Shown piece after piece: positions 4,274 through 48,751 of a stretch of 64,000 nt of DNA. Both the position numbers and the translations under genes were made by a program. Position 1 is the first letter of the stretch; the number at the start of each line of letters is the position of its first letter. The stretch spans positions 17,197 through 81,196 of the forward strand of contig LBYP01000001.1 in assembly GCA_000996245.1 (NCBI GenBank). Reading direction: 5' to 3'. This stretch comes from Parcubacteria group bacterium GW2011_GWA2_40_23. GTDB taxonomy: Bacteria > Patescibacteriota > Patescibacteriia > UBA11705 > JABHMO01. Below the pieces are notes generated by a model. It was not told the DNA's origin. It searched no databases and was given only the letters and a program-made list of their open reading frames with translations.

Positions 4274-6031
4274 TTATTTTTGAGTAGTAGTGGAGACAAT
4301 TATGACATCGCCCACATTAATGCCTTCAAGAATTTCTATGTTTCCATTGGTGCCGCGAATTCCAGTTGTGACTTTTACTTCTTGAACTTCGGTGGTATTT
4401 TTTAGAATTCGAACAGTTTTATCTCCGTTGGTTCTGATAATTGCTCGTTGCGGTATAGTCACAATATCATTTTTTTCAGCTGTTAAAATATCAACATTAG
4501 CAGTTAAACCGGATTTAATGTTTTCATTCTCCTCTGTAAATTCAAGCGTGACTTTGTAAGTCGGAACGCCATCAATAATAGTTTCAGCTGGATCAACCAA
4601 AATTATTTTGGCTTCAAATTTGGTGTCGCTGCCAAAAGCATCAAGAGTTACAGCGGCAGTGTCGCCGATTTTTACGTTGGCAATATCAACTTCAGCTACA
4701 TTAGCTTCTATTTGGAAGTTATTATCAGAAATTACTTTAATAACAGTTGTGTTTGATTGGATAATTTCACCAACCTTAGCGTCTTGCATGACGACAATGC
4801 CATCAATTGGGGAAACAATATTGTTTTTAGCGATTTGAGCCGAGATGTTTCCGATATTAGCTTGGGCATATTTAATTTGAGCTTGTTGAGATCTGACATT
4901 GGCTTCAGCTAATTTAACCTGAGATTCTTGAGCATTGATTTGTTCTTGAGTGGAACCTGCGCGTTTGAGTAAGAGTGTGTTTTGTGATGATTGTAAAGTG
5001 TTTTGAGAAGTATTGACCGCGGCTAAGGCTGTAGCAATGGTCGAAGTGTTGGTTGCTTTCTGAGCTTTAATTGCATTTTCATTAGTGGCAATAGAAGTTA
5101 TTTGTGCATCTACATAGCTTTTTTGAGTATTGAGGCTGCTGATGTCGGTTGTGGAAAGTGGAGACAATGAAATCGCATTAAAGGTTTGACGTACTTGTTG
5201 CATGGCAGCTTTCGTTGCCGTTAATGCGACATTAATATTTTCTTCAGTCGGGGTTTGAAAGGCGGTGTTGACTAGTCCCTTGGCTCCGCCATTTAAACTG
5301 TTTAATCCTGAGTTGCTCATTCGTCCGGCATTGTAACCACCGAGTAATGAGACTACGGCAAAACTTTTCGCATCGGCGAGGCGGGTTCCTTCTGGAGTGG
5401 AATCTCCAAAATAAGTATTTTGTATGTCTGTAATTGTAAATAGAGCATAAAGACCAACATTTACGGCATCACTTAATCCGGCGTTGGTAACTTCAAGTTG
5501 TTTTTGTAGATCAGTTATGGCTTTTGTTTTAGAATTTTCATAAGCGATTTGGGCATCAGCTAAACTATTTTGGGCGCCGGTGACAGTTTCTTCGGCAATG
5601 ACCATTTCCTCGGGACGGGTGCCACTTTTAAGTTCATTTAATTTTGACTGTTGAGTCGCTAGCGCTGATTCGTAATTCATTAGTAGGGCACGACTACTCT
5701 CGAGAGAAGCAGCCGCTTGACTGCTTTGTGCAAATAAATCATTGCTAGTTAAACTAGCTAGTAATTGGCCAGATTTTACAACATCACCAACTTTAACATT
5801 GATTTTTGCGACTTTTCCGGGTTTTTCAAAGGCTAACTCAACATTATTGGCAGCTTTGACTGTACCAGTAACACTGACTTCTTGTGTTAAGTTCGATTTC
5901 TCTGCTACAACCGTGGTGTAAATGGGGTCTGTGTTCTTTCTTGATAAAAGGATTCCCCCAATCATAATAATTAAAATGATCCCGATAATGATGTAGAATT
6001 TTTTCAGCTTAAAAATTTTGGGTAGATTCAT
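4274..6031 (-). CDS. HlyD-family periplasmic adaptor / membrane-fusion protein (long form)
   Basis: 585 aa. N-terminal TM anchor (IIIGIILIIMIGGILL), a long Ala/Gln/Ser/Thr-rich coiled-coil segment, and C-terminal beta-barrel/lipoyl-like motifs (VKAANNVELAF...GQLLASL). Same operon as the ABC ATPase and two FtsX permeases. Confidence 0.7.
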   Translation of the reverse strand: MNLPKIFKLKKFYIIIGIILIIMIGGILLSRKNTDPIYTTVVAEKSNLTQEVSVTGTVKAANNVELAFEKPGKVAKINVKVGDVVKSGQLLASLTSNDLFAQSSQAAASLESSRALLMNYESALATQQSKLNELKSGTRPEEMVIAEETVTGAQNSLADAQIAYENSKTKAITDLQKQLEVTNAGLSDAVNVGLYALFTITDIQNTYFGDSTPEGTRLADAKSFAVVSLLGGYNAGRMSNSGLNSLNGGAKGLVNTAFQTPTEENINVALTATKAAMQQVRQTFNAISLSPLSTTDISSLNTQKSYVDAQITSIATNENAIKAQKATNTSTIATALAAVNTSQNTLQSSQNTLLLKRAGSTQEQINAQESQVKLAEANVRSQQAQIKYAQANIGNISAQIAKNNIVSPIDGIVVMQDAKVGEIIQSNTTVIKVISDNNFQIEANVAEVDIANVKIGDTAAVTLDAFGSDTKFEAKIILVDPAETIIDGVPTYKVTLEFTEENENIKSGLTANVDILTAEKNDIVTIPQRAIIRTNGDKTVRILKNTTEVQEVKVTTGIRGTNGNIEILEGINVGDVIIVSTTTQK

Positions 6032-6055
6032 ATAGTTTATTATTTTTGGTAAATG

Positions 6056-6262
6056 TTAGTTGCCATTAATCATATTAATCATGATAATCATTGTAATCAT
6101 AGTAATGTTCGTTGCCACTAATCATATTAATCATAAGAATCAGGGTAATCATAGTAATGTTTGTTGCCGCTGCTAATCATATTAATCATGATAATCATTG
6201 TAATCATAGTAATGTTTGTTGCCACTAATCATATTAATCATGATAATCATTGTAATCATAGT
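6056..6262. repeat. Tandem repeat, about 52-55 bp unit x 4 (GTTGCCACTAATCATATTAATCATGATAATCATTGTAATCATAGTAATGTTT)
   Basis: Seen directly: four consecutive near-identical copies between marR (upstream) and the adaptor gene. Contains the palindromic ATCATGAT core. The last copy overlaps the marR stop. Confidence 0.75.
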
Positions 6263-6687
6263 CTTTCGTAATGCTTAAAAAGTTTTTGATATATATTAAT
6301 TAAATCTTTTTTGTCTTTTTCGTTTAGAGGAGAGAGAAAGTTAATCATTTTACTTTTTATGTTTTTCTGTGTTGTTTCCAGGAATTTTTTGCCCGTTTTT
6401 GTTAATTCTAGATAAACGTTACGACGATCTTGTTTCTCGTGCTTACGGGACAGTAGCTTTTTGTCTTCGAGTTTATTAATGAAACAGGTAATAGAGGGTG
6501 GCGTGATACCAAAAAGACGAGCCAGGTCTTTCATGCGGGTCTTTTCTTGACTGTTGATGAAGGAGAGGGCTTCAAATTGAATCATTTTTTCTGCTGAGAT
6601 TTGAGTGGTTTTTTGCAGTTGTGAGAAAATGAGGCGTTTTAGGTTAAAAATGGTTTCGATTAGTTGTTCTGTGTTTTGTGTAGACAT
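6256..6687 (-). CDS. MarR-family transcriptional regulator
   Basis: 143 aa with a winged-helix region (MKDLARLFGITPPSITCFINKLEDKKLLSRKHEKQDRRNVYLELTKTGKKF). First gene of the minus-strand efflux operon. Confidence 0.8.
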   Translation of the reverse strand: MSTQNTEQLIETIFNLKRLIFSQLQKTTQISAEKMIQFEALSFINSQEKTRMKDLARLFGITPPSITCFINKLEDKKLLSRKHEKQDRRNVYLELTKTGKKFLETTQKNIKSKMINFLSPLNEKDKKDLINIYQKLFKHYERL

Positions 6688-6889
6688 ATTTAGTTTATCT
6701 AACTATTATGTTTTCTAAGTATAACAGGGCGGATAAAAAAAACAATGTTTGGCGTTGCGTGAAGATGCTTGGGTTTGTTTTGAAGTGTTCAATTGAAAAA
6801 GACAATTTGGGTGGTTTTTTGATTGATTTTTTATCACAGATGATGTAAAATTGCATTAGTTTGTAAACAATTTAACTTTATTACTAAAT

Positions 6890-38884: not shown

Positions 38885-38923
38885 AAAAAAGAAGTCCCCA
38901 CACCGATGCCGATGTGAGGACTT
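38885..38923 (-). terminator. Rho-independent terminator of the GC-rich island-1 gene
   Basis: On the minus strand: AAGTCC-(20 nt loop)-GGACTT-c-TTTTTT. A second hairpin GTCCC...GGGAC lies at 38924-38939. Confidence 0.55.
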
Positions 38924-38949
38924 GTCCCGTGAGAGGGACGGGGGACAGG

Positions 38950-40026
38950 CTACGCCTTGGCGCCGTCGCGGATGGCGCGGCAGCGGGCGAAGCCGAAGGG
39001 GAACAGGGGGCAGGACGAGCCGGCGCAGATGCCCATGAGGCACATGGCGGCGTGCTCTGCCGCGTAGTAGCGGGGGTCGAGCGCGATCTTCACGATCTGG
39101 ATCAGCCGCTCGAACGGGATCTTGGTCGGGTCGATGCCCTTGGCAGAGTGCGACCCGTTCAGGATGCTGTGACCGTGTGCGAAGTGCCACACGCTTTCTT
39201 CGTCGTCGCCGCGCAGCTTCTTCTCTTCTACCTCGATGGCGTTGGCGAGGTCGCTCAGGTCCAGTCCCAGGCGCTGGTCGGTCTGGATCGCCACGTTCCC
39301 GCGGGAGTCGATCTTGACGACGACCGCGGCGTTGGCACCATGCTGGCTACGAGCGTAGCGCATGATCGCCATCGAGTCGCTCCGCACCGAGCACAGGGTG
39401 ATGTCCCCCTTGCTGCTGCGGATGGTCTCGATCTTGGAGTTGGCCTCGAAGTCCTTCTTGGAGGTCTCCACGAAGTCGAAGTGATCGAACACCTTCGCCT
39501 CCATCCCCAGCTCCAGCCATTTTTTCCAGTTCCTCTTGTCCTGGGCCAGCAGCATTGCGATGAGCTGAAGGCTGTAGTCGTTCGACGGGTTCAGCTCGCC
39601 GATCTTGACGTCGAAGGCCGCGTAGGCCCACTCCAGCATGTCGACGGCAGGGACGTTCTGCATCCCCATGAAGGTGAGGATCCTGCAGAGGTTGAAGGGT
39701 TGGTCGCCGGAGTTCGTGTCGTTCTTGTGCACGTAGTTCAGCAACCCCGCGATCTGCGGGGTGTGCTCGACGTGCAAAGCGTTGGCCAGCAACATGGCGC
39801 TGCTGGTTTCGCCAGACTTCATCAGGTGGTCGTTGAAGCGACCCTTGCCCACGCCGAACTCCAGGATGCCTTCGGGCGAGGCGTACTCGCGCAAGAAGGC
39901 GGGCGTGCCCCAATTTTCGGCGATGTAGCAGCACAGAAACTCGTCCGGGTGAGGGTTGGTATGCGTCACCACGATGATTTTGCGTCCCGCCACTTTGACG
40001 GGAATGCGGATCGTCTCTCTGGCCAT
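38950..40026 (-). CDS. GC-rich island-1 gene: putative UPF0160/MYG1-like metal-dependent hydrolase
   Basis: 358 aa with normal amino-acid composition and strong G/C third-position bias. VVTHTNPHPDEFLCCYIA resembles the MYG1 THxGxFHxDEALAC motif. GVGKGRFNDH and HFAHGHSILNGSH resemble later MYG1 metal-site segments. Consensus SD GGAGG lies 7 nt upstream. Confidence 0.6.
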   Translation of the reverse strand: MARETIRIPVKVAGRKIIVVTHTNPHPDEFLCCYIAENWGTPAFLREYASPEGILEFGVGKGRFNDHLMKSGETSSAMLLANALHVEHTPQIAGLLNYVHKNDTNSGDQPFNLCRILTFMGMQNVPAVDMLEWAYAAFDVKIGELNPSNDYSLQLIAMLLAQDKRNWKKWLELGMEAKVFDHFDFVETSKKDFEANSKIETIRSSKGDITLCSVRSDSMAIMRYARSQHGANAAVVVKIDSRGNVAIQTDQRLGLDLSDLANAIEVEEKKLRGDDEESVWHFAHGHSILNGSHSAKGIDPTKIPFERLIQIVKIALDPRYYAAEHAAMCLMGICAGSSCPLFPFGFARCRAIRDGAKA

Positions 40027-40085
40027 GAAAGCACCTCCAGTAAATGGTTTTTGTTGACTCTTAACTGTGTCCTTTTGAACTAGCC

Positions 40086-40127: not shown

Positions 40128-40294
40128 CTGTGAGTATAAGGGTTTTCTTTAACTGCACAGCAAGTCCATTTAAAGGAATGATAAATATTTTTATCTAAAT
40201 TTAAACGTTTTTTGTCTTTAACAAAACAAAAAAAAGACAATTTTTGTCTTTTTTTAAAAGGTTTACCATGAAGTCACACTTCGTGTGTACTTCA

Positions 40295-40373
40295 TGGTGG
40301 ACGCTAGTGGGGTCGAACCACTGACCTCCTCGACGTCAACGAGGCGCTCTAGCCAACTGAGCTAAGCGTCCAC
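40295..40373 (-). tRNA. tRNA-Val (anticodon GAC)
   Basis: GTGGACGCTTAGCTCAGTTGGCTAGAGCGCCTCGTTGACGTCGAGGAGGTCAGTGGTTCGACCCCACTAGCGTCCACCA. 7-bp acceptor stem, anticodon loop TTGACGT, encoded CCA. Confidence 0.85.
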
Positions 40374-40616
40374 AAAGTACAGACTTTGCCTGACTTTATG
40401 GCAAGCCCCTAGTCGGCAAAGCTGTTTTTGATGGACAATAGATTTGTTTTTTATTAACGTGGCTTGTCACGTACTGACGTATGGTTCACCAGGAAGTACA
40501 CACGAAGTGTGACTTCATGGCAAGCCAGGCAGTATAAACAGAGTTTAACTTCATAGCAAGCCTAAAGCTATGCTGTCGTATGGTTCACCATAAAGTCACG
40601 CGTAGCGTGTACTTTA

Positions 40617-40693
40617 TGGTGGGCCTGATGGGACTCGGACCCATGACCCCCACTTTATAAGAGTGGTGCTCTAACCAGCTGAGCTACAGGCCC
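40617..40693 (-). tRNA. tRNA-Ile (anticodon UAU)
   Basis: GGGCCTGTAGCTCAGCTGGTTAGAGCACCACTCTTATAAAGTGGGGGTCATGGGTCCGAGTCCCATCAGGCCCACCA. Ile-type body (resembles tRNA-Ile GAU) but the anticodon loop is CTTATAA. The T-loop is TCCGAGT (C at position 55). Confidence 0.7.
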
Positions 40694-40851: not shown

Positions 40852-42006
40852 CTAAAGTATTATTTGGGCAGCGGTTTCTAGAATGCTTTGCTTATTGGTA
40901 TTGAAAGGGAATTTAATCAAAGTCTTTTGACCTTGTGGGTTATAAATACTAAAGTAATTCCTTAAATCAACACCTTTTTCTGATTTAATAATGGAATAGG
41001 TTTGATTTCCTTTTTGAAAGAAAATTATTGAAAGTTCCACTGTCGGTATGTTGCTGATTAACTCCTCAAGAACACCTGAGAGGTCTTTTTCATCTGTCCT
41101 AGTATCAAAAAAGTCTTGTTCTGTAATTTCGGTCCAAGCAATCTTTTGTCTAACATCCGTCTCAAGTTTTAAAAGTGTTTTACCCCACAAGCGAAGAGTA
41201 TTTACTGATCTTGTCTGATAAAGGTTTTTGATAATAGAATCTCGTTCGGCCCCTGCAGCCATAAGTTGGCTGGCGATATTTAAGCTTTTGGGAGTAATTG
41301 TTGGAATTTTAAAACTCTTGGTTCTTTCTATCATGCCGGTTAAAAGATGCGTGGCCATTTGCTCATCCATAAGGCTAGGATCGAGCGAATCAATTAAATC
41401 ATAAAGGATTTCGGAAACTGAGGTTGCAGTTATATTAATCAAATTGATATGGCCATAATGTTCGTTTTCTGGTGAATAATCAATGTTGATAATGGGTACA
41501 TTGAAGAAAAATTCAGTATTGTCTTCGTAAAATTTTTCTAGTGATGAAAGATCTGGTGTATTCAAGGTAATAATCAGATCATGTTTATAGCTGGTTTCAG
41601 AAATTTTAATATTTTCTTTGGTAAAATCAGCTTGATCTGAGTTAATGTGAATATGTAACTGATTGTCTCGTTCTTCATGCTCTAGATGATGGCTTCTAAT
41701 GGCTGGGTGATCAAGCGAGATCGTGACCCGTTTAAGGTTAGTACTTTGTCTTTTAATCTTTTCAACCCCTTCTAAAAATTTAAAATTGTCCGGCAATTCG
41801 TATTGCGGCGCAATGATATCACAAGAGCGATTCCATTTTTTAAGTAAGCGACCAAGAGCTAGGCTGCTGGCAACCACATCACCGGTTGCTTCTTTGTGGA
41901 AGGTGATGAGTGGGTACTGACTTTTCTGGATCGTTTCGTAGAGTTGTTGTTGCTGTGTTAAAGACATAAATGAAAGTGACGGGGTAGCTACCTTAAAGCC
42001 ACACAA
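40852..42006 (-). CDS. DHH-family phosphoesterase (NrnA-like nanoRNase/pAp phosphatase)
   Basis: HKEATGDVVASSLAL resembles the NrnA HxxPDGDAxGSxxAL motif. The C-terminal DHHA1-like region is present. The true start may be the internal Met (MSLTQQQQ, about 41964). Confidence 0.65.
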   Translation of the reverse strand: MCGFKVATPSLSFMSLTQQQQLYETIQKSQYPLITFHKEATGDVVASSLALGRLLKKWNRSCDIIAPQYELPDNFKFLEGVEKIKRQSTNLKRVTISLDHPAIRSHHLEHEERDNQLHIHINSDQADFTKENIKISETSYKHDLIITLNTPDLSSLEKFYEDNTEFFFNVPIINIDYSPENEHYGHINLINITATSVSEILYDLIDSLDPSLMDEQMATHLLTGMIERTKSFKIPTITPKSLNIASQLMAAGAERDSIIKNLYQTRSVNTLRLWGKTLLKLETDVRQKIAWTEITEQDFFDTRTDEKDLSGVLEELISNIPTVELSIIFFQKGNQTYSIIKSEKGVDLRNYFSIYNPQGQKTLIKFPFNTNKQSILETAAQIIL

Positions 42007-42156: not shown

Positions 42157-45100
42157 ATGGAAATTGATAAAGCTTATAGCCCCCAGGAAAAAGAAGAAAA
42201 AATTTATACTGATTGGCAAAAAAAAGGACTTTTTAATCCAGATACTTTAAATAGAAAAGGCGCCAAGGCTTTCTCAATTGTTTTACCGCCGCCAAATGTT
42301 ACCGGCACTTTGCATTTGGGGCATGCTTCGATGTTGGCTATTGAAGATTTAATGATCCGCTATAAACGCATGCAAGGTTTCGATACTCTATGGGTACCAG
42401 GGACAGACCATGCGGCTATTGCCACTCAAAATGTGGTTGAGAAAAAAATTTATAATGAAGCCAAAAAGACTCGTCACGATTTTGAGCGTGATGATTTTTT
42501 ATCTTTAGTGGCTGATTTTGCTGAAAAATCAAAAGAGACAATCCGCAATCAAGTGCGAAAAATGGGTTCAAGCTTAGATTGGAGTCGCGAAGCTTATACG
42601 TTGGATGAGGTTAGAAGTAAGGCTGTCAAAAAAGTTTTCAAAATGATGTCTGACGATGGTTTGGTTTATCGTGGATACCGTATCGTCAATTGGTGCCCGC
42701 GATGTCACACAACTTTAGCTGACGATGAAATTGTATACAAGGAAACAAAGAGTAAATTATATTGGATAAAATATGGTCCGTTTGTTTTAGCTACAACTAG
42801 GCCTGAAACAAAGCTGGGAGATACGGCTGTAGCTGTAAATCCAGGCGACGAACGTTATAAAGACATGGTCGGAAAGAAATATATGATCCCAGGGGTTTTG
42901 GGAGAGTTTGAAATTACTGTTATTGCTGATGAAGCAGTTGATCCTGTCTTTGGTTCTGGCGCAGTTAAAGTTACGCCAGGACATAGTGTAGTTGATTATG
43001 ACATGGCTATGCGTCATCACATTAAAGTTAAAAAGATTATCGACGAAGATGGTCGCATGATGGCAAATTGTGGAAAGTATGCCGGCATGACAACGTTCGA
43101 AGCGCGCGAAGCGATTGTCAAAGATATGCAAGCTATGGGTTTGATCGAAAAGATTGATGAAGATTATGATAATAAATTGTCAGTTTGTTATCGTTGCAAA
43201 ACAATCGTGGAACCATTGCCATCGTCTCAATGGTTTATTGATGTTAATAAAAAAATTATTAAGAAAGATAATAAGTATTTTAAAAATGGAGCTTCGCTTA
43301 AAGAAGTATCGCTCAAAGTTGTGCGTGATGGAGAAATTAAAATTATTCCTGAGAGATTTGAAAAAACATATTTTCAATGGATGGAAAATTTGCGTCCTTG
43401 GTGTATTTCACGTCAAATATGGTTTGGCCATCGCATTCCTGTTTGGTATAAAAAACAAAAATCTTTTTTGGTTATGGCTTCACGTCACGGAGAAGCTAAA
43501 AATAATCACGAAAAGCTTTTAAATTCAGATATAAACTATCGTTCATATACGTTAACTGAAAAAGGCAGAGCCGATATTGCCGCTGATGCTGAAAGATTGA
43601 AACGAGAAGGACATAAATTCGATATAATTTTTACTTCAGACTTTGAAAGAACAATGCAAACTGCAAAAGTTTTTGCAGAAGCTTTTAAGGCTGAAATTAT
43701 TCCAGAAAAACGTTTACGTGAAGTCGGTATGGGTGAGTTTGATGGGCAAGAAGATGTGCCCGAAGGACCATTTGACCAATTGCGTAATAATTTTGAGGGC
43801 TGGCATCACAATAGTCCAAAGGGAATTGAATCTTTTGATAGTTTAAAGATACGGGTCGAATCCTTTCTTAATGAAATTAAAGCTAAATATCCAGATAAGA
43901 AAGTTATGATTGTAACTCATGGTGACCCACTGAGAATTATAAATGGATACGGCACAGATTTTTCTGACGAAGAAATATTTAATTTGGGTTTTCCTGGAGT
44001 CGGTGAACAGATTTGGATTGATTTAGCTCGTAAAAAAGAACGAGTTGTGACAGAAGAGGTTTTGGATTCTAGTGAATGGGAACAAGATTCAGACACCCTT
44101 GATACTTGGTTCTCGGCCGGACTTTGGTCATTTACAACTTTGTTGCCAAAGGATTGGGACGGCAAAGACTTCAAGTCCGCTGACATGAAACGATTTCACC
44201 CCACAACAGTTTTAGAAACAGGTTATGATATTATTTTCTTTTGGGTAGCGCGTATGATTCTTATGACCACTTATGTTTTGGGTGAAGTGCCATTTGAAAA
44301 TGTTTATTTACATGGTTTGATCCGGGATATAGACGGCGAAAAAATGTCAAAATCAAAACCGGAGACATCCATCGATCCATTAGACGCGGGGAACAAATAT
44401 GGTTTTGATGCGGTTCGTCTCAGCCTCTTGATTGGCAACTCTGCTGGCAATGATATTCGTTTATACGATGAAAAAATTGAAAGCTATCGTAATTTCGTTA
44501 ATAAACTTTGGAATGTGGCTCGTTTCATTTTAACTTCGGTTTCAGATATCTCAGTTGACACCAAGAATCTTGTGGGAGACACTTTAGCTGATAAGTGGAT
44601 TCTGTCCCGATTCAACACTTTGAAACGCGAAGTTACTAGATTATTAGATGAATACAATTTTTCTTTGGCTGGTGAAATGCTACGAGATTTTACTTGGTAC
44701 GAACTCGCTGATTGGTATTTGGAAATTGCTAAAGTCGAAAAAAATAAAGATGCTATTTTGATGAGTATACTTAAAGAGGTTTTGGCTATGTGGCATCCAT
44801 TCGTTCCATTCGTTACAGAAGCGATTTGGAGTAATCTTAATCAACCAGAACAATTGATCGTCAGCGCTTGGCCGGAGACACAGAAAGATTTTATCGACGA
44901 AAAGATCGAAAAACAATTTGAAGTTATTAAACAGATCACAGTCGGAATCCGAAACGTCAGAGCTGAATATAATATTCCATATTCAAAAGACATTGAAGCG
45001 ATCGTCGCTGTAAATTCAGATGCCGAAATGATTGAATCAAATCAAGATGTTGTGAAAAGAATTACACGATTAACAGAATTCAAAGTTGTCGAAGTCGCTA

Positions 45101-45390
45101 AGGGCACAGAATATCCTCAACCAGAAGGTTATGTTTCTGGCGGAACATTTAGTCTCGGGACAGTTTTTGTTAATCTTTCCGGTGCAGTAGATTTGAGTAA
45201 AGAAAGGGAACGCTTACAAAAAGAATTAGATAGTTTAGAAAAATATCTTTCTGGATTAGAAAAGAAATTGTCGAACGATGAGTATGTTAAAAATGCTCCG
45301 GCGAATATTGTGGAAGCAGATAAGGCTCGTCAACTTGAGTCTCAGGAGAAAGTCACGAGCTTGAAAGCACAAATTGCAGAATTAAAATAA
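42157..45390 (+). CDS. valS: Valyl-tRNA synthetase with an inserted histidine-phosphatase (PGAM-like) domain
   Basis: HIGH-type PPNVTGTLHLGHA, KMSKS, and the C-terminal coiled coil. Between WFGHRIPVWY and DSDTLDTWFS lies an in-frame segment of about 210 aa (nt about 43450-44086). Within it, SRHGEAKNN ... IIFTSDFERTMQTA ... VMIVTHGDPLR match the histidine-phosphatase branch-1 signature. Confidence 0.9.
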   Translation: MEIDKAYSPQEKEEKIYTDWQKKGLFNPDTLNRKGAKAFSIVLPPPNVTGTLHLGHASMLAIEDLMIRYKRMQGFDTLWVPGTDHAAIATQNVVEKKIYNEAKKTRHDFERDDFLSLVADFAEKSKETIRNQVRKMGSSLDWSREAYTLDEVRSKAVKKVFKMMSDDGLVYRGYRIVNWCPRCHTTLADDEIVYKETKSKLYWIKYGPFVLATTRPETKLGDTAVAVNPGDERYKDMVGKKYMIPGVLGEFEITVIADEAVDPVFGSGAVKVTPGHSVVDYDMAMRHHIKVKKIIDEDGRMMANCGKYAGMTTFEAREAIVKDMQAMGLIEKIDEDYDNKLSVCYRCKTIVEPLPSSQWFIDVNKKIIKKDNKYFKNGASLKEVSLKVVRDGEIKIIPERFEKTYFQWMENLRPWCISRQIWFGHRIPVWYKKQKSFLVMASRHGEAKNNHEKLLNSDINYRSYTLTEKGRADIAADAERLKREGHKFDIIFTSDFERTMQTAKVFAEAFKAEIIPEKRLREVGMGEFDGQEDVPEGPFDQLRNNFEGWHHNSPKGIESFDSLKIRVESFLNEIKAKYPDKKVMIVTHGDPLRIINGYGTDFSDEEIFNLGFPGVGEQIWIDLARKKERVVTEEVLDSSEWEQDSDTLDTWFSAGLWSFTTLLPKDWDGKDFKSADMKRFHPTTVLETGYDIIFFWVARMILMTTYVLGEVPFENVYLHGLIRDIDGEKMSKSKPETSIDPLDAGNKYGFDAVRLSLLIGNSAGNDIRLYDEKIESYRNFVNKLWNVARFILTSVSDISVDTKNLVGDTLADKWILSRFNTLKREVTRLLDEYNFSLAGEMLRDFTWYELADWYLEIAKVEKNKDAILMSILKEVLAMWHPFVPFVTEAIWSNLNQPEQLIVSAWPETQKDFIDEKIEKQFEVIKQITVGIRNVRAEYNIPYSKDIEAIVAVNSDAEMIESNQDVVKRITRLTEFKVVEVAKGTEYPQPEGYVSGGTFSLGTVFVNLSGAVDLSKERERLQKELDSLEKYLSGLEKKLSNDEYVKNAPANIVEADKARQLESQEKVTSLKAQIAELK

Positions 45391-45425: not shown

Positions 45426-46610
45426 ATGCCAACTGACACTGATTCTAAAAAAATTGAAGAATTATTAACGCGTGGTGTTGAGGAAGTTATCGATCGTGAA
45501 AGTTTAAAGAAAAAACTTCAAAGTGGAAAAAAATTACGCATTAAGTTCGGAGTTGATCCAACTTCTCCTGATTTACATGTTGGGCATGCTGTTCCATTAC
45601 GAAAGCTGAGACAATTTCAAGACGCGGGGCATCAAGTTATTCTGCTCATTGGTGATTATACAGCAATGGTCGGAGATCCAAGTGGGAGGAATGAAACTCG
45701 TCCAATGTTGGCACGGGAAGATGTTGAGAAGAACATGAAAACGTATATAGAACAAGCAACTCGTATTTTGAAAATGGATGATGTTGAGTTGCGTTATAAT
45801 AGTGAGTGGTATGAAGATAAGGGCTGGAACTTTATTATGTCTCTAACGGGGAAAATTACTGTTGCTCGTGTTTTAGATAGAGATGATTTTCAAAAGAGAT
45901 TAAAAGAGGGTTCAGATATTCAAATGCAGGAAATATTGTATCCTCTTATGCAGGGGTATGATTCTGTCGAATTGAAGGCGGATGTTGAAATTGGTGGTAC
46001 TGATCAGAAATTTAATATGTTGATGGGAAGAAAGCTACAAAAAAAATATAATGAACCCGAACAGGATGTGATAACAATTCCATTGCTTGTGGGTCTTGAT
46101 GGTGAAAAAAAGATGAGTAAAAGCTATGGTAATTACATTGCTCTTACGGATTCGGTTGAGGAAATGTTTGGGAAAATTATGTCTATTCCTGATCATCTGA
46201 TTATAAAATATTTTGAGTTAGCCACGGCAACATCAATGGAGAAGATTGAAGAGATTAAACATAGAATGGAGAACGGAGAAAATCCACGCGACTTAAAGTT
46301 AGAGTTGGCTGGAGCTGTCGTCGAAATATATTATGGCGTTAAAGCTGCCACTGAAGCCAAGGAAAACTTTTTACAAATGTTTCAAAAGAAAGAAGTGCCA
46401 GATGATATTGCAGAATTGAAATTAGCAGGTGCTTCCATCATCGATGTTTTGGTTGAAGCAAAGTTTGTGACTTCAAAAACCGATGCTCGTCGTAACATTG
46501 AACAAAAAGGCGTCAAGTTGAATGGGGCTGTCGTCTCGGATCTTGCTCAAACTGTAAAAAGCGGGGACATAATTCAAAAAGGTAAAAGGTTTTTCATCAA
46601 AATAAAATAA
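45426..46610 (+). CDS. tyrS: Tyrosyl-tRNA synthetase
   Basis: HVGH, KMSKS, and a C-terminal S4-like domain. Confidence 0.9.
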   Translation: MPTDTDSKKIEELLTRGVEEVIDRESLKKKLQSGKKLRIKFGVDPTSPDLHVGHAVPLRKLRQFQDAGHQVILLIGDYTAMVGDPSGRNETRPMLAREDVEKNMKTYIEQATRILKMDDVELRYNSEWYEDKGWNFIMSLTGKITVARVLDRDDFQKRLKEGSDIQMQEILYPLMQGYDSVELKADVEIGGTDQKFNMLMGRKLQKKYNEPEQDVITIPLLVGLDGEKKMSKSYGNYIALTDSVEEMFGKIMSIPDHLIIKYFELATATSMEKIEEIKHRMENGENPRDLKLELAGAVVEIYYGVKAATEAKENFLQMFQKKEVPDDIAELKLAGASIIDVLVEAKFVTSKTDARRNIEQKGVKLNGAVVSDLAQTVKSGDIIQKGKRFFIKIK

Positions 46611-46614
46611 AAGT

Positions 46615-47055
46615 ATGAAAATTTTGGTCTTGCTCGAAAATTTAGTTCTAAACCCAGACGCAGATTATGCTGTCATCGAATCATCAATGAATAAAATCCA
46701 TAAATGGTTAGACGCTGGTGCTGAGGTAGAATATTTAACAGGTATCAATAAGTTTTTAGAACTTAAAAAGATTGATGATCGTTTTCATGACCTTGATTTA
46801 CCAGATGCCAAGGTTCATAAAAAACAGGAAACAGAAAAATTTAAAGAAGTTTTAGAAATGGTTTCCCCCAGTTTCTTTATTGATTTAAAAGGAAGTTTGG
46901 ATGGCGAAAAAGACATCTCTTCTCAACTAAATGGTGAAAATAAAATTGCAGCTATTGTTTTAGCTGATTTGGCCGAAATGACAAAACTGCCGGATTATCT
47001 CGAAGAACTGAAAGATTATTTAGAGGAAGAAGAAGTTGTTGAAGAAGTAGAATAA
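46615..47055 (+). CDS. Hypothetical acidic protein
   Basis: 146 aa, Glu-rich C-terminus, no family recognised. Confidence 0.45.
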   Translation: MKILVLLENLVLNPDADYAVIESSMNKIHKWLDAGAEVEYLTGINKFLELKKIDDRFHDLDLPDAKVHKKQETEKFKEVLEMVSPSFFIDLKGSLDGEKDISSQLNGENKIAAIVLADLAEMTKLPDYLEELKDYLEEEEVVEEVE

Positions 47056-47056
47056 T

Positions 47057-48751
47057 ATGATTGATATTAAAACACAACTCAGCCGCGAAATCGGGAAGAT
47101 AGTCAATCTCGCGGTTAGTGCTATGGATTTCGCGGCACCGCCAAATGTGAATTTGGGCGATTTAGCATTTCCATGTTTTAATTTGGCTAAGGAATTAAAG
47201 ACAAATCCAAATGAAGTAGCTAATAATATTGCCGAAAAATTAAGTTCCAGTAAGATTGTCTCAAGTTGTAAGGCCGCTGGACCTTATGTCAATATTATTG
47301 TTAAAGACGAAGCTTTAATAAATTTACTCAGCGAAAATATTTTAGCTAATGAACAATTCGGAGTCGGCCAAGACAAGAAAACGAAATTGATGGTTGAGTT
47401 TGCTCATCCAAATACTTTAAAATCTTTTCATATTGGTCATCTTCGCAATATTGTGACGGGTGAAAGCATCGCTCGTATTTTGCAAAATGATGGTTATGAA
47501 GTAGTTAGAGCCAATTATCAAGGTGATGTGGGCTTGCATATTCCAAAAGCTCTTTGGGGGATCAAACAACTTTGGGGTGAATATGAGTCAATTAAAAAAG
47601 CTTCGGTAGAAAAGCGAGTAGCCTTTTTAGGTAAGGCCTATGCTTTTGGTTCTCAGAATTTCGAAAAAGATGAAGCGGTTAAAACTCAAGTATATGAGTT
47701 AAATGAAAAAATTTATAAGTTAAGTCCAGATATTGAAGAACTCTATCAAGAAACCAGAACTTGGAGTTTAGAATATTTTGATCATATCTATGCCAGAGTT
47801 GATACCAAATTTGATCGTCTGTATTTTGAATCAGAAACTTTCAAACGCGGGAAAGAAATAGTCGAAAAATTTATTAAAAAGGGAATTTTTGAAAAAAGCG
47901 AAGGTGCCATAATTTTCCCAGGCGAGAAATTCGGATTACACAATCGAGTTTTTATTAGTAGTAAGGGCGCGCCAATGTACGAAGCCAAGGATATTGCTTT
48001 AGCTGAAATGCAGTTTAAAGAATTTAATCCGAAAAAAATTATTCACGTTGTCGGCAAAGAACAAACAGAATATTTTAAAGTTATTTTTGAAGCTTTGAGT
48101 CAGGTTTTCCCAAAGTTAAAAGGGCGCGAGTTCCATTTAGCATATGGATGGGTTTCTTTAAAGCATGGTAAAATGAGTTCACGTACTGGCCAAGTTGTTT
48201 TGGGTGAATGGCTTTTGGATGAAGTAGAAAAACAAGTTCAAGAGATCATGAAGGATTCAGATATCAAGAAAAAGGATGCGACGATCAGCGCCGTATCTTT
48301 AGCGGCTGTTAAATATGCTTTACTAAAAGTCGGAGTAAAAATTGATTTGGCTTTCGACATAAACGAATCTGTTAGTCTTTCTGGCGACAGCGGACCATAT
48401 TTACTTTATATTAATGCCCGTATTAATAGTATTCTAGCCAAAGCATCAGGTAAAATAGTAGGGCGTAAATTGGGAATTGATACAATCCATTCAAGCGAGA
48501 AAAAAATAATAATGAGTTTGTCCAATTTTGCTGAAGCCACCGAGAAGGCCGCGGACGAACTTGATCCCTCAGTCATTGCTCGATATTTATTTAATTTAGC
48601 GCAAGATTTTAATACTTTTTACGCTGAATGCCCAGTTTTGCAAGCCGAAGAGAAGATTAAAATATGGAGACTTCAAATAATTACAGCCGTACGTGATGTG
48701 ATGAATAGCGGTTTAAACCTGTTGGGCATCCCTGTTGTCGAGAAAATGTAG
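47057..48751 (+). CDS. argS: Arginyl-tRNA synthetase
   Basis: 564 aa. HIGH variant HIGHLRN and the C-terminal DALR anticodon-binding region. Confidence 0.9.
   Translation: MIDIKTQLSREIGKIVNLAVSAMDFAAPPNVNLGDLAFPCFNLAKELKTNPNEVANNIAEKLSSSKIVSSCKAAGPYVNIIVKDEALINLLSENILANEQFGVGQDKKTKLMVEFAHPNTLKSFHIGHLRNIVTGESIARILQNDGYEVVRANYQGDVGLHIPKALWGIKQLWGEYESIKKASVEKRVAFLGKAYAFGSQNFEKDEAVKTQVYELNEKIYKLSPDIEELYQETRTWSLEYFDHIYARVDTKFDRLYFESETFKRGKEIVEKFIKKGIFEKSEGAIIFPGEKFGLHNRVFISSKGAPMYEAKDIALAEMQFKEFNPKKIIHVVGKEQTEYFKVIFEALSQVFPKLKGREFHLAYGWVSLKHGKMSSRTGQVVLGEWLLDEVEKQVQEIMKDSDIKKKDATISAVSLAAVKYALLKVGVKIDLAFDINESVSLSGDSGPYLLYINARINSILAKASGKIVGRKLGIDTIHSSEKKIIMSLSNFAEATEKAADELDPSVIARYLFNLAQDFNTFYAECPVLQAEEKIKIWRLQIITAVRDVMNSGLNLLGIPVVEKM

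Follow-up and report, generated by a model that had tools for sequence, protein, structure and literature searches.

Aminoacyl-tRNA synthetases (aaRS) are among the most conserved of enzymes, and the new catalytic domains they have gained are usually terminal appendages in eukaryotes. How, then, does a housekeeping synthetase of a bacterium come to have a second and apparently active enzyme lodged in its catalytic core, and what might it do there? The question is raised by valS, the gene for valyl-tRNA synthetase (ValRS), in a 64,000-nucleotide stretch of Parcubacteria group bacterium GW2011_GWA2_40_23 (assembly GCA_000996245.1, contig LBYP01000001.1, positions 17,197 to 81,196), hereafter the window. 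An earlier note, made from the letters alone, had described an in-frame insert with the signature of a histidine phosphatase between two conserved segments of the ValRS core. We find it nearly certain that this insert is an autonomous, well-folded branch-1 histidine-phosphatase domain seated at the tip of the CP3 hairpin of the organism's housekeeping ValRS, and that such domains recur at several sites across many Patescibacteria.

A phosphatase domain in place of the second zinc knuckle of ValRS

The open reading frame (ORF) is recognized as ValRS by both NCBIfam valS equivalogs, NF004349 (985 bits; cutoff 704) and TIGR00422 (914 bits; cutoff 612), and each match is interrupted exactly where the insert lies, which leaves two stretches. 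Pfam tRNA-synt_1 (E=3.6e-120) likewise matches in two stretches, with His_Phos_1 lying between the halves of the catalytic domain. The synthetase parts are as follows, in positions of the window.

42157..45390, forward strand: valS, the complete ValRS ORF with the inserted domain, 1077 aa plus stop, uninterrupted
42313..42324, forward strand: HIGH signature HLGH of the class I catalytic site, aa 53-56, aligned to 1GAX HMGH
42754..43167, forward strand: CP1 editing domain (roughly aa 200-337), which contains the conserved TTRPETKLGD motif; matches 1WKA/1WK9 (Thermus thermophilus ValRS editing domain)
43420..43449, forward strand: WFGHRIPVWY, aa 422-431, the last core strand before CP3 and the upstream cassette anchor
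43450..44085, forward strand: CP3 insert, aa 432-643, 212 aa, taking the place of the zinc knuckle (1GAX chain about 418-448)
44008..44085, forward strand: CP3 beta-hairpin, return arm (aa 618-643), by which the chain rejoins the Rossmann fold
44086..44115, forward strand: DSDTLDTWFS, aa 644-653, the downstream anchor, aligned to 1GAX DEDVFDTWFSS
44341..44355, forward strand: KMSKS loop, aa 729-733, aligned to 1GAX KMSKS
44590..45000, forward strand: anticodon-binding domain, aa 812-948 (Pfam Anticodon_1, E=1.2e-33)
45190..45387, forward strand: C-terminal coiled-coil tRNA-binding arm, aa 1012-1077 (Pfam Val_tRNA-synt_C, E=7e-15; long helices at 1013-1076 in the AlphaFold2 (AF2) model)

In a 52-sequence ValRS alignment, H53 and G55 of the HIGH signature are invariant and H56 is nearly so. 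The editing residues T213, R215, P216, E217, T218, H276 and D280 are invariant, as are G424, H425 and P428 of the upstream anchor, L648, D649, T650, W651, F652 and S653 of the downstream anchor, and K729 and K732 of the KMSKS loop, in which M730, S731 and S733 reach at least 90%. The protein is a ValRS with intact HIGH, KMSKS, CP1 editing, anticodon-binding and coiled-coil parts, in agreement with the intact flanking motifs that the earlier note had read, and its synthetase part would charge and edit tRNA normally.

Alignment to the T. thermophilus enzyme (1GAX) places the insert at the CP3 zinc-knuckle site. Query residues 1-433 correspond to chain residues 1-418 and query residues 634-1073 to 439-858, and about 200 residues stand in place of the second zinc knuckle of 1GAX (about 20-30 residues), just before DTWFSS. 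The Thermus ValRS (1GAX/1IVS) shares the Rossmann HIGH/KMSKS core, CP1 editing domain, first zinc site (CPRC...CYRC), anticodon domain and coiled coil, whereas its second knuckle (CP3, about 417-441) is absent here, with a histidine phosphatase of about 185 aa at the hairpin tip instead. By residue count from this alignment, the Trp of DSDTLDTWFS is W456 of 1GAX, which we take from the 1GAX literature to line the valine pocket. The CP3 return arm aligns with the baseline hairpin (EIYVGExAPxGxGW) of insert-free relatives. CP3 connects CP2 with the latter half of the Rossmann fold and binds zinc in T. thermophilus isoleucyl-tRNA synthetase (IleRS), and its topology differs in the Staphylococcus aureus and Candida enzymes (PMC7191050).

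The AF2 model of full-length ValRS (predicted local distance difference test (pLDDT) 87.3; predicted template modelling score (pTM) 0.76) is confident across both junctions, with the blocks of the insert at 86-95. Beta-strands at 429-432 and 438-443 on one side and at 618-622, 629-631 and 641-643 on the other flank the phosphatase domain, which therefore sits on the CP3 beta-hairpin. The segment lies, as had been proposed, in a single uninterrupted ORF. Of the limits first given to it, 43450-44086, the start holds and the end moves to 44085, 44086 being one base into the next codon. Its G+C content (GC) is 35.6%, against 38.0% for the remainder of valS. An intein can be set aside: intein splicing needs a nucleophilic Cys, Ser or Thr at the junctions, which here read Y431|K432 and Q643|D644, the insert has the fold of an entire enzyme, and a Pfam scan of the ValRS protein found no Hint/intein family and no endonuclease domain.

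The inserted domain and its predicted chemistry

The match to Pfam His_Phos_1 is well above threshold, at 115 bits in the whole protein (E=4.5e-33; cutoff 21.7) and 118.5 bits for the insert alone (E=3.7e-34), and the motifs quoted in the earlier note, SRHGEAKNN, IIFTSDFERTMQTA and VMIVTHGDPLR, are all present. Conservation of the catalytic residues was counted over the 54 His_Phos-class ValRS inserts that could be extracted, all about 200 aa.

43480..44007, forward strand: His_Phos_1 (PF00300) domain proper, aa 442-617
43483..43488, forward strand: RHG motif, with R443 (phosphate-binding Arg, 50/54) and H444 (nucleophilic His, 54/54)
43648..43650, forward strand: R498, second Arg of the phosphate pocket, in SDFERTMQTA (54/54)
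43720..43722, forward strand: E522, the general acid of His_Phos enzymes, in RLREVGMGEFDG (54/54)
43918..43920, forward strand: H588, distal catalytic His, in VTHGD (54/54)

N450 is conserved in 53 of the 54, the four exceptions at R443 form a distinct 'xHGTT' subclass, and the window copy is fully canonical. This conservation spans ValRS of 46-93% identity. Because the nucleophilic His, the second Arg, the Glu and the distal His are invariant in all 54 inserts, the domain is probably a working phosphomonoesterase of canonical mechanism, a phosphatase and not a phosphoglycerate mutase. In that mechanism H444 would be transiently phosphorylated, R443, R498 and H588 would hold the phosphate, and E522 would act as acid.

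Modelled together with its hairpin arms from a 24-sequence alignment, the insert reached a pLDDT of 93.5 and a pTM of 0.88 with the expected alternating beta/alpha pattern, so that structure prediction agrees with an independent domain. Foldseek searches of the PDB with this model returned histidine-phosphatase folds only, many of them at probability 1.00 and template modelling (TM) scores of 0.65-0.74. The tightest fits are the phosphoserine phosphatase PspA (4IJ5/4IJ6; root-mean-square deviation (rmsd) 2.7-2.8 Å, 26-27% identity) and the glucosyl-3-phosphoglycerate phosphatase Rv2419c (4PZ9; 3.6 Å), and PDB sequence searches agree. PspA, Rv2419c and Bacillus PhoE (1H2E/1EBB) share the fold, catalytic residues, similar size and phosphatase-type acid motif of the insert, but they are only 20-27% identical to it and are free-standing, whereas here both termini are tethered.

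The mutase dPGM (GpmA) belongs to the same superfamily, shares the N-terminal RHGE...N and accounts for many Foldseek matches, but the alignments have an rmsd of 4.7-10 Å and cover mainly the N-terminal half. A dPGM is marked by the acid motif 'ERHYG' and a C-terminal cap tail. Here the acid motif is REVGMGEFDG, of the small-phosphatase type and unlike that of dPGM, and after the HGD strand the chain re-enters the ValRS hairpin and leaves no free C-terminal tail. The dPGM profiles also fall short (TIGR01258, 52.8-56.7 bits versus 81.7; NF038349 (dPGM_arch), 89-94 versus 225; NF010713, 42-48 versus 305), as do those for CobC, the alpha-ribazole phosphatase (TIGR03162, 73-77 bits versus 162.9), for the PspA equivalog (57-60 bits versus a cutoff of 350) and for the GpmB equivalog. 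The insert had first been called PGAM/SixA-like; membership of the PGAM superfamily stands, and likeness to SixA does not, as TIGR00249 gives 30.3 bits versus 74.5 and aligns only insert residues 12-81. Judged by these profile and fold comparisons, the insert is best classed as a generic PGAM-superfamily phosphatase nearest to small phosphatases such as PspA and Rv2419c.

Cassettes at CP3 of Patescibacteria ValRS

Among the 120 best ValRS matches to the whole protein, a list that like our other best-120 lists is biased toward its query, PF00300 is present in 57, and the 54 inserts that could be extracted all lie at the same site. The PF00300-bearing proteins are 1034-1750 aa long, save two partial sequences (926 and 978 aa), lie on contigs of up to 1.13 Mb, and carry, in the taxonomy given by their sources, the names Falkowbacteria, Komeilibacteria, Peregrinibacteria, 'Parcubacteria group' and 'Patescibacteria group'. 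The earlier note had taken the architecture to be outside the aaRS canon, and it is; the survey of related ValRS from the candidate phyla radiation (CPR) finds the same insert as a recurrent cassette class and not as a one-off.

Counted between the anchor motifs WFGHRIPVWY and DSDTLDTWFS, the baseline in insert-free Patescibacteria ValRS is a hairpin of 27 aa (e.g., KEDEIYIGETAPQGEGWI), and other Patescibacteria ValRS have zinc knuckles of 30-47 aa. The large size of the insert is therefore upheld, and the short linker of 35-40 aa with which it had been compared gives way to a still shorter baseline, which strengthens the observation. His_Phos inserts occupy 200-232 aa between the same anchors and alpha/beta Ser_hydrolase inserts 201-226 aa (PF06821, E=4.7e-15). 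Modules of about 150 aa resemble the ASCH module of P0049 and have no significant Pfam match of their own, and cassettes of 102-115 aa (P0028, P0071, P0106) match no Pfam family (P and L numbers are our handles for proteins and loci). Composite inserts join His_Phos to ASCH (P0017, P0049) or to the hydrolase (P0103); in P0038 two His_Phos domains flank an unassigned ASCH-like module, likewise without a Pfam family, and P0051 has the same arrangement plus a hydrolase. The ASCH match (PF04266) beside His_Phos is above cutoff in P0049 (27.4 bits) and just below it in P0017 (19.6 bits). Since a CxxC...CxC pattern is retained around the domain in several relatives, His_Phos was inserted into the tip of the knuckle.

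The cassettes turn over on nearly constant synthetases. In a crude neighbor-joining tree of insert-less ValRS cores, built on BLOSUM distances, cassette-bearing and cassette-free proteins interleave, and in three pairs (P0012/P0029, P0014/P0028 and P0071/P0066) unrelated inserts sit on cores that are 96-100% identical. At the DNA level, loci L009 and L010 are 98.3-99.4% identical over 8.6 kb and differ solely in the segment from the VWY codons to the QDPDTL codons, which is replaced exactly: positions 4294-4570 of L009 (277 nt, 21% GC, coding for a familyless segment of 102 aa) stand against positions 4294-4345 of L010 (a 52-nt hairpin) in a gene of 38% GC. This difference is a recent horizontal cassette exchange anchored on invariant flanks. 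The clade of the window cassette retains its insert from 64% to 93% identity, and a scan of genome contigs with a single protein returned insert-free ValRS only, matched through the flanking motifs.

Related domains in isoleucyl-tRNA synthetase

An exhaustive HMMER scan with the insert against 1.84 billion representatives gave 6872 matches, of which the best 150 were inspected. Among these 150, 67 are at least 330 aa long, and nearly all of them score as IleRS (most), as ValRS (about 8) or as fragments; the exceptions are one fusion of QueC with His_Phos and a few proteins with little beyond two His_Phos copies. The first free-standing protein appears at rank 16, and the IleRS copies score as high as or above any free-standing protein against the window domain. 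The insertion sites are CP3 in both ValRS and IleRS, a loop after D(T/V)WF(S/D)S in a ValRS fragment (P0130) and in IleRS P0126, P0175 and P0123, and a position after KMSKS in IleRS P0126 and P0133, which makes at least two sites in ValRS and at least three in IleRS (at least five in total). In the ValRS fragment P0130 (422 aa) the zinc knuckle is intact and His_Phos lies in the loop after DTWFSSGLWTFSTL and before FHPTxVLETGYDI; that loop is an independent second ValRS insertion site.

In BLAST rank, which is only a proxy for phylogeny, 35 of the 54 ValRS inserts are nearer to the window domain than the first IleRS-embedded or free-standing copy and 19 fall below it, and other insert classes show a like pattern. 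The ValRS inserts are not monophyletic by this measure, which indicates several independent acquisitions or replacements.

A search with one IleRS (P0149) found PF00300 in about 90 of its 120 best relatives, which lie on contigs of up to 1.6 Mb and come from Peregrinibacteria, Gracilibacteria, Altimarinota and others. Such chimeras, for example P0286, 'class I tRNA ligase family protein [Candidatus Peregrinibacteria bacterium]', carry the same family as the window protein at the homologous CP3 but in an IleRS host, often with two His_Phos domains or with a GNAT or P-loop kinase domain (AAA_33/AAA_18/Zeta_toxin) in the second loop. In PDB searches with the kinase that adjoins His_Phos in IleRS P0305, Pnkp1 (4XRP), a polynucleotide kinase from an RNA-repair complex of bacteria, came out best (E=1.1e-5, 28 bits), the next matches being far weaker; the GNAT partner found generic acetyltransferases only. 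A curated class Ia precedent for an embedded enzyme domain is NF040702 (ileS_w_GNAT), which differs in host and fold and of which the window protein is not a member (183 bits versus a cutoff of 1999). In the ValRS and IleRS of Patescibacteria, CP3 and two loops near it in the catalytic body serve as ports for horizontally exchanged enzyme cassettes.

Other domains also occur among these proteins. In the CP1 region, some IleRS carry in frame, besides His_Phos, GNAT and kinase cassettes, a DUF559/REase-like endonuclease (P0288, P0298) or an IS200-type Y1 transposase (P0296), and precomputed annotation assigns PF04480 to the IleRS P0350, P0355 and P0390; these endonuclease and transposase domains may be remnants of the mobile agents that moved the cassettes. 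The QueC fusion noted above (P0144, 579 aa; PF06508, 64 bits, with His_Phos_1), among the closest relatives of the domain, is a further link to tRNA-modification metabolism (queuosine precursor). Database names of the chimeras include 'class I tRNA ligase family protein', 'GNAT family N-acetyltransferase' and the JGI composite 'isoleucyl-tRNA synthetase/phosphohistidine phosphatase SixA/...GNAT'; the second is the NCBI name of P0292 and P0309, which are IleRS of 1378-1418 aa on contigs of 0.34-1.56 Mb.

What the embedded phosphatase might do

The earlier note had speculated about a phosphorylated nucleotide or tRNA-end substrate, for which the ASCH and Pnkp1-like kinase partners in relatives give circumstantial support. 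Tethered beside the synthetic site, the phosphatase would clear the acceptor end of the tRNA, or a nucleotide bound there, of a phosphate that blocks charging. Candidate substrates would be a 3'-phosphate, the group that remains once a 2',3'-cyclic phosphate is opened, or a 3'-(pyro)phosphate of the kind left on the CCA end by toxSAS, and the domain would thereby act as an end-healing or counter-toxin accessory module that enables tRNA charging. We tentatively favor the view, at rather less than even confidence, that the phosphatase works together with aminoacylation in this manner, because the large hosts of the subfamily are almost exclusively two paralogous synthetases, because its recruitment was repeated and multi-site, and because the partner modules are oriented toward RNA or aminoacyl groups (ASCH, Pnkp1-like kinase, GNAT and an esterase-type hydrolase). 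Two further reasons are that charging is known to be blocked when the CCA end is 3'-(pyro)phosphorylated and that the cassette turnover resembles that of genetic-conflict loci. Aminoacylation is prevented by toxSAS enzymes, which attach a pyrophosphate to the CCA end (bioRxiv 10.1101/2021.04.30.441581; PMC11559606), and ASCH proteins deacylate N4-acetylcytidine, also in tRNA (PMC6972931; bioRxiv 10.64898/2026.02.27.708502).

Known RNA-end enzymes with a built-in phosphatase, such as Pnkp/Pnkp1-Rnl-Hen1 and T4 Pnkp, offer a functional analogy only: these end-healers use HAD and metallophosphoesterase folds, unlike His_Phos, and the window protein has no ligase or kinase. In RNA end-healing, a HAD or metallophosphoesterase 3'-phosphatase is combined with a P-loop 5'-kinase, and the CCA-adding enzyme of Escherichia coli bears a phosphatase HD domain. 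Another fusion of His_Phos with a nucleic-acid enzyme is the Rv2228c-type RNase H/acid phosphatase (NF005567), over whose phosphatase half the insert scores 64-67 bits, but that fusion is terminal and not internal, its cutoff of 326 is missed, and the partner enzyme is a different one.

Several observations weigh against a role in aminoacylation. Free-standing relatives of 160-210 aa are about 40% identical to the window domain, about as near as the IleRS-embedded copies, and since they are equally similar the domain is not visibly specialized. It is acidic (pI 5.3), and in net charge and pI embedded domains are no more basic than the free-standing ones, which gives no hint that the domain itself offers a surface for binding RNA. 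The cassette is dispensable for ValRS function, since close relatives lack it entirely. The similarity to Pnkp1 is modest (28 bits) and lies in the IleRS relatives, not in the window protein, and a P-loop kinase joined to His_Phos is also the arrangement of the metabolic enzyme PFK-2/FBPase-2. We know of no histidine phosphatase with an established RNA 3'-end substrate.

In the nearest competitor the domain is a metabolic hitch-hiker: an ordinary small-molecule phosphatase, acting on phosphoserine, sugar phosphates or nucleotides, that has no link to aminoacylation and is carried in a permissive surface loop of an essential, constitutive gene in a streamlined genome. We consider this somewhat unlikely, though a serious candidate. 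Beyond the equal similarity of free-standing relatives, the acidic domain without an RNA-binding signature and the dispensability of the cassette, it accommodates catalytic residues that are conserved in a domain that nevertheless matches no equivalog, and closest structures that are metabolite phosphatases, PspA and Rv2419c; CP3 is also structurally variable among IleRS (PMC7191050). It leaves unexplained why, among 1.84 billion representatives, the large hosts are almost solely IleRS and ValRS, and why there are at least five insertion sites in these two enzymes, and the co-inserted ASCH, GNAT, Pnkp1-like kinase and serine hydrolase domains are not random metabolic enzymes.

The link to aminoacylation can be extended to the cassettes as a set, an extension that is more speculative and that we think unlikely. 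Under it, CP3 and the two adjacent loops would be a docking port, and the cassettes (His_Phos, Pnkp1-like kinase, GNAT, serine hydrolase and ASCH) would form a synthetase-embedded system for acceptor-end repair or counter-toxin defense, healing a 3'-phosphate or pyrophosphate, or an aberrant acyl or acetyl group, before charging and being swapped by gene conversion on the invariant flanks in the manner of an arms race.

A detoxifying role, in which the cassettes would inactivate aminoacyl-adenylate-mimic antibiotics or phosphorylated nucleotide by-products that poison ValRS or IleRS, is improbable in our estimate. Immunity of the microcin-C type involves MccE (a GNAT), MccF (a serine peptidase) and a HIT-family phosphoramidase, and the repertoire of GNAT, serine hydrolase, phosphatase and amidohydrolase-like ASCH would parallel such enzymes of immunity to aaRS-targeting peptide-nucleotides. 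The insert site adjoins the adenylate site, the cassettes turn over rapidly, and NCBIfam holds a GNAT-containing IleRS subfamily (NF040702), all of which would suit this idea. Histidine phosphatases, however, act on phosphomonoesters, and in adenylate mimics the phosphorus bears substituents on both sides; no ValRS inhibitor of this kind is known in these habitats, and the idea is drawn entirely from analogy.

Less probable still are two explanations that look to the synthetase itself or to the cassette alone. As a protein phosphatase in cis or a regulatory sensor, the domain would remove inhibitory phosphorylation from ValRS or bind a phospho-metabolite that tunes aminoacylation. HipA-type toxin kinases phosphorylate other aaRS, some His_Phos members (PGAM5, Sts-1, SixA) dephosphorylate protein or phospho-histidine, and both the partial SixA match at 30 bits and the kinase domains that co-occur in IleRS relatives would fit. 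The SixA equivalog cutoff is missed, however, no kinase lies in the ValRS protein or beside it in the window, and the best PDB match of the partner kinase is a polynucleotide kinase and not a protein kinase. As a selfish or neutral filler, to which we give equally little credence, the cassette would persist by gene conversion at a conserved-flanked site of an essential gene as a tolerated bulge. The exact replacement of a foreign segment of 21% GC between conserved codons of a 38% GC gene speaks for it, as do the DUF559 endonuclease-like and Y1 transposase domains inside related IleRS genes and the patchy distribution of cassettes on the core tree. Against it, the residues of catalysis stay invariant in lineages as distant as 46% identity, as would not be expected of neutral filler, the window cassette is near its host in GC and belongs to a clade that keeps it from 64% to 93% identity, and the window protein lacks both endonuclease and intein (Hint) domains.

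Implications

Full-text searches of the literature found neither a ValRS or IleRS chimera with a histidine phosphatase nor an exchange of cassettes at CP3 described. Synthetases with accessory domains are of a known kind, and the wider cassette-port phenomenon is the newer element. Should the phosphatase act on the tRNA end or on ligands of the active site, it would add a layer of quality control or defense to the charging enzyme itself, and action on the tRNA end would, as far as we know, give a histidine phosphatase a role at RNA ends for the first time. Should it instead be a hitch-hiking metabolic enzyme, it would still show how ultra-small genomes package functions, and would mark CP3 as a naturally validated insertion-tolerant site for the engineering of class Ia synthetases. 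Automated annotation under names such as 'class I tRNA ligase' or 'GNAT' can hide essential aaRS genes when CPR genomes are reconstructed, so that these could seem to lack IleRS.

The valS locus

The window contains a single ValRS, no second His_Phos gene and no IleRS. The order of genes is DHH(-), valS, tyrS, an ORF of 146 aa, argS, bactofilin and DAGK, and the nearest neighbors of assigned family are as follows.

40852..42006, reverse strand: DHH-family gene, upstream neighbor (Pfam DHH, weak)
45426..46610, forward strand: tyrS (TyrRS), downstream neighbor (Pfam tRNA-synt_1b, E=8.8e-79), kept in relatives
47057..48751, forward strand: argS (ArgRS), downstream neighbor (Pfam tRNA-synt_1d and DALR_1), kept in relatives

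The DHH-family neighbor is also present at loci L009, L010 and L012-L015. In the distant relatives L009 and L010 the synteny DHH-valS-tyrS-argS(-DAGK) is kept, but valS has a different insert or none. Because this order is common to relatives without an insert or with another one, and the window holds no other ValRS, the gene is the organism's housekeeping valS; a paralogous second ValRS is ruled out by the synteny with insert-free orthologs, which also lends indirect backing to its predicted valine-specific charging.

The exact protein is encoded on 11 contigs (20-200 kb), one of them from a groundwater metagenome assembly (PRJNA268031), and assemblies from ENA, JGI and Logan contain an ortholog of 93% identity in an identical gene order; on these grounds misassembly and frameshift are excluded as far as assemblies show. 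That ValRS and phosphatase genes were joined by an assembly chimera or frameshift has nothing in its favor but the metagenomic origin of the window and can be dismissed, given the identical protein on 11 contigs, the syntenic ortholog in three independent data sources, the recurrence of PF00300 in 57 of the 120 closest ValRS with all 54 extracted inserts at one site, a continuous frame of uniform composition, and an AF2 model that is confident over both junctions.

Several smaller features of the locus were also recorded. The acidic ORF of 146 aa between tyrS and argS (46615-47055, forward strand) has no Pfam match; it is kept in the loci of P0002 (L012-L014) and absent from L009 and L010, where argS directly follows tyrS. 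In L010, tyrS is broken into two ORFs of 252 and 142 aa (5645-6836), and it is intact in L009 and the window; the split is either a strain frameshift or pseudogene or an assembly error.

Shortly upstream of valS on the reverse strand lie genes for tRNA-Ile with anticodon UAU (40617-40693) and tRNA-Val(GAC) (40295-40371), both with an encoded 3' CCA. The former was found by Rfam at the gathering threshold, at which the latter was not, tRNA-Val being called by ARAGORN only. A tRNA-Ile with a UAU anticodon is unusual in bacteria, in which AUA is normally read by a lysidine-modified CAU tRNA. Similar elements of about 40 nt, 'CCAT(A/G)AAGT(A/C)ACAC...GTGACTT...GGTGAACCATACG', occur after each tRNA gene and between them (about 40290-40640, reverse strand), in a region whose GC is 0.47-0.49 compared with about 0.36 around it, and may be terminators or a small repeat family. 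Farther upstream, an ORF of 358 aa without a Pfam family (38950-40026, reverse strand) lies opposite a GTG-started ORF of 389 aa (38914-40083, forward strand), whose odd composition is rich in G, A, V, D, R and L and which is almost certainly a non-coding shadow ORF.

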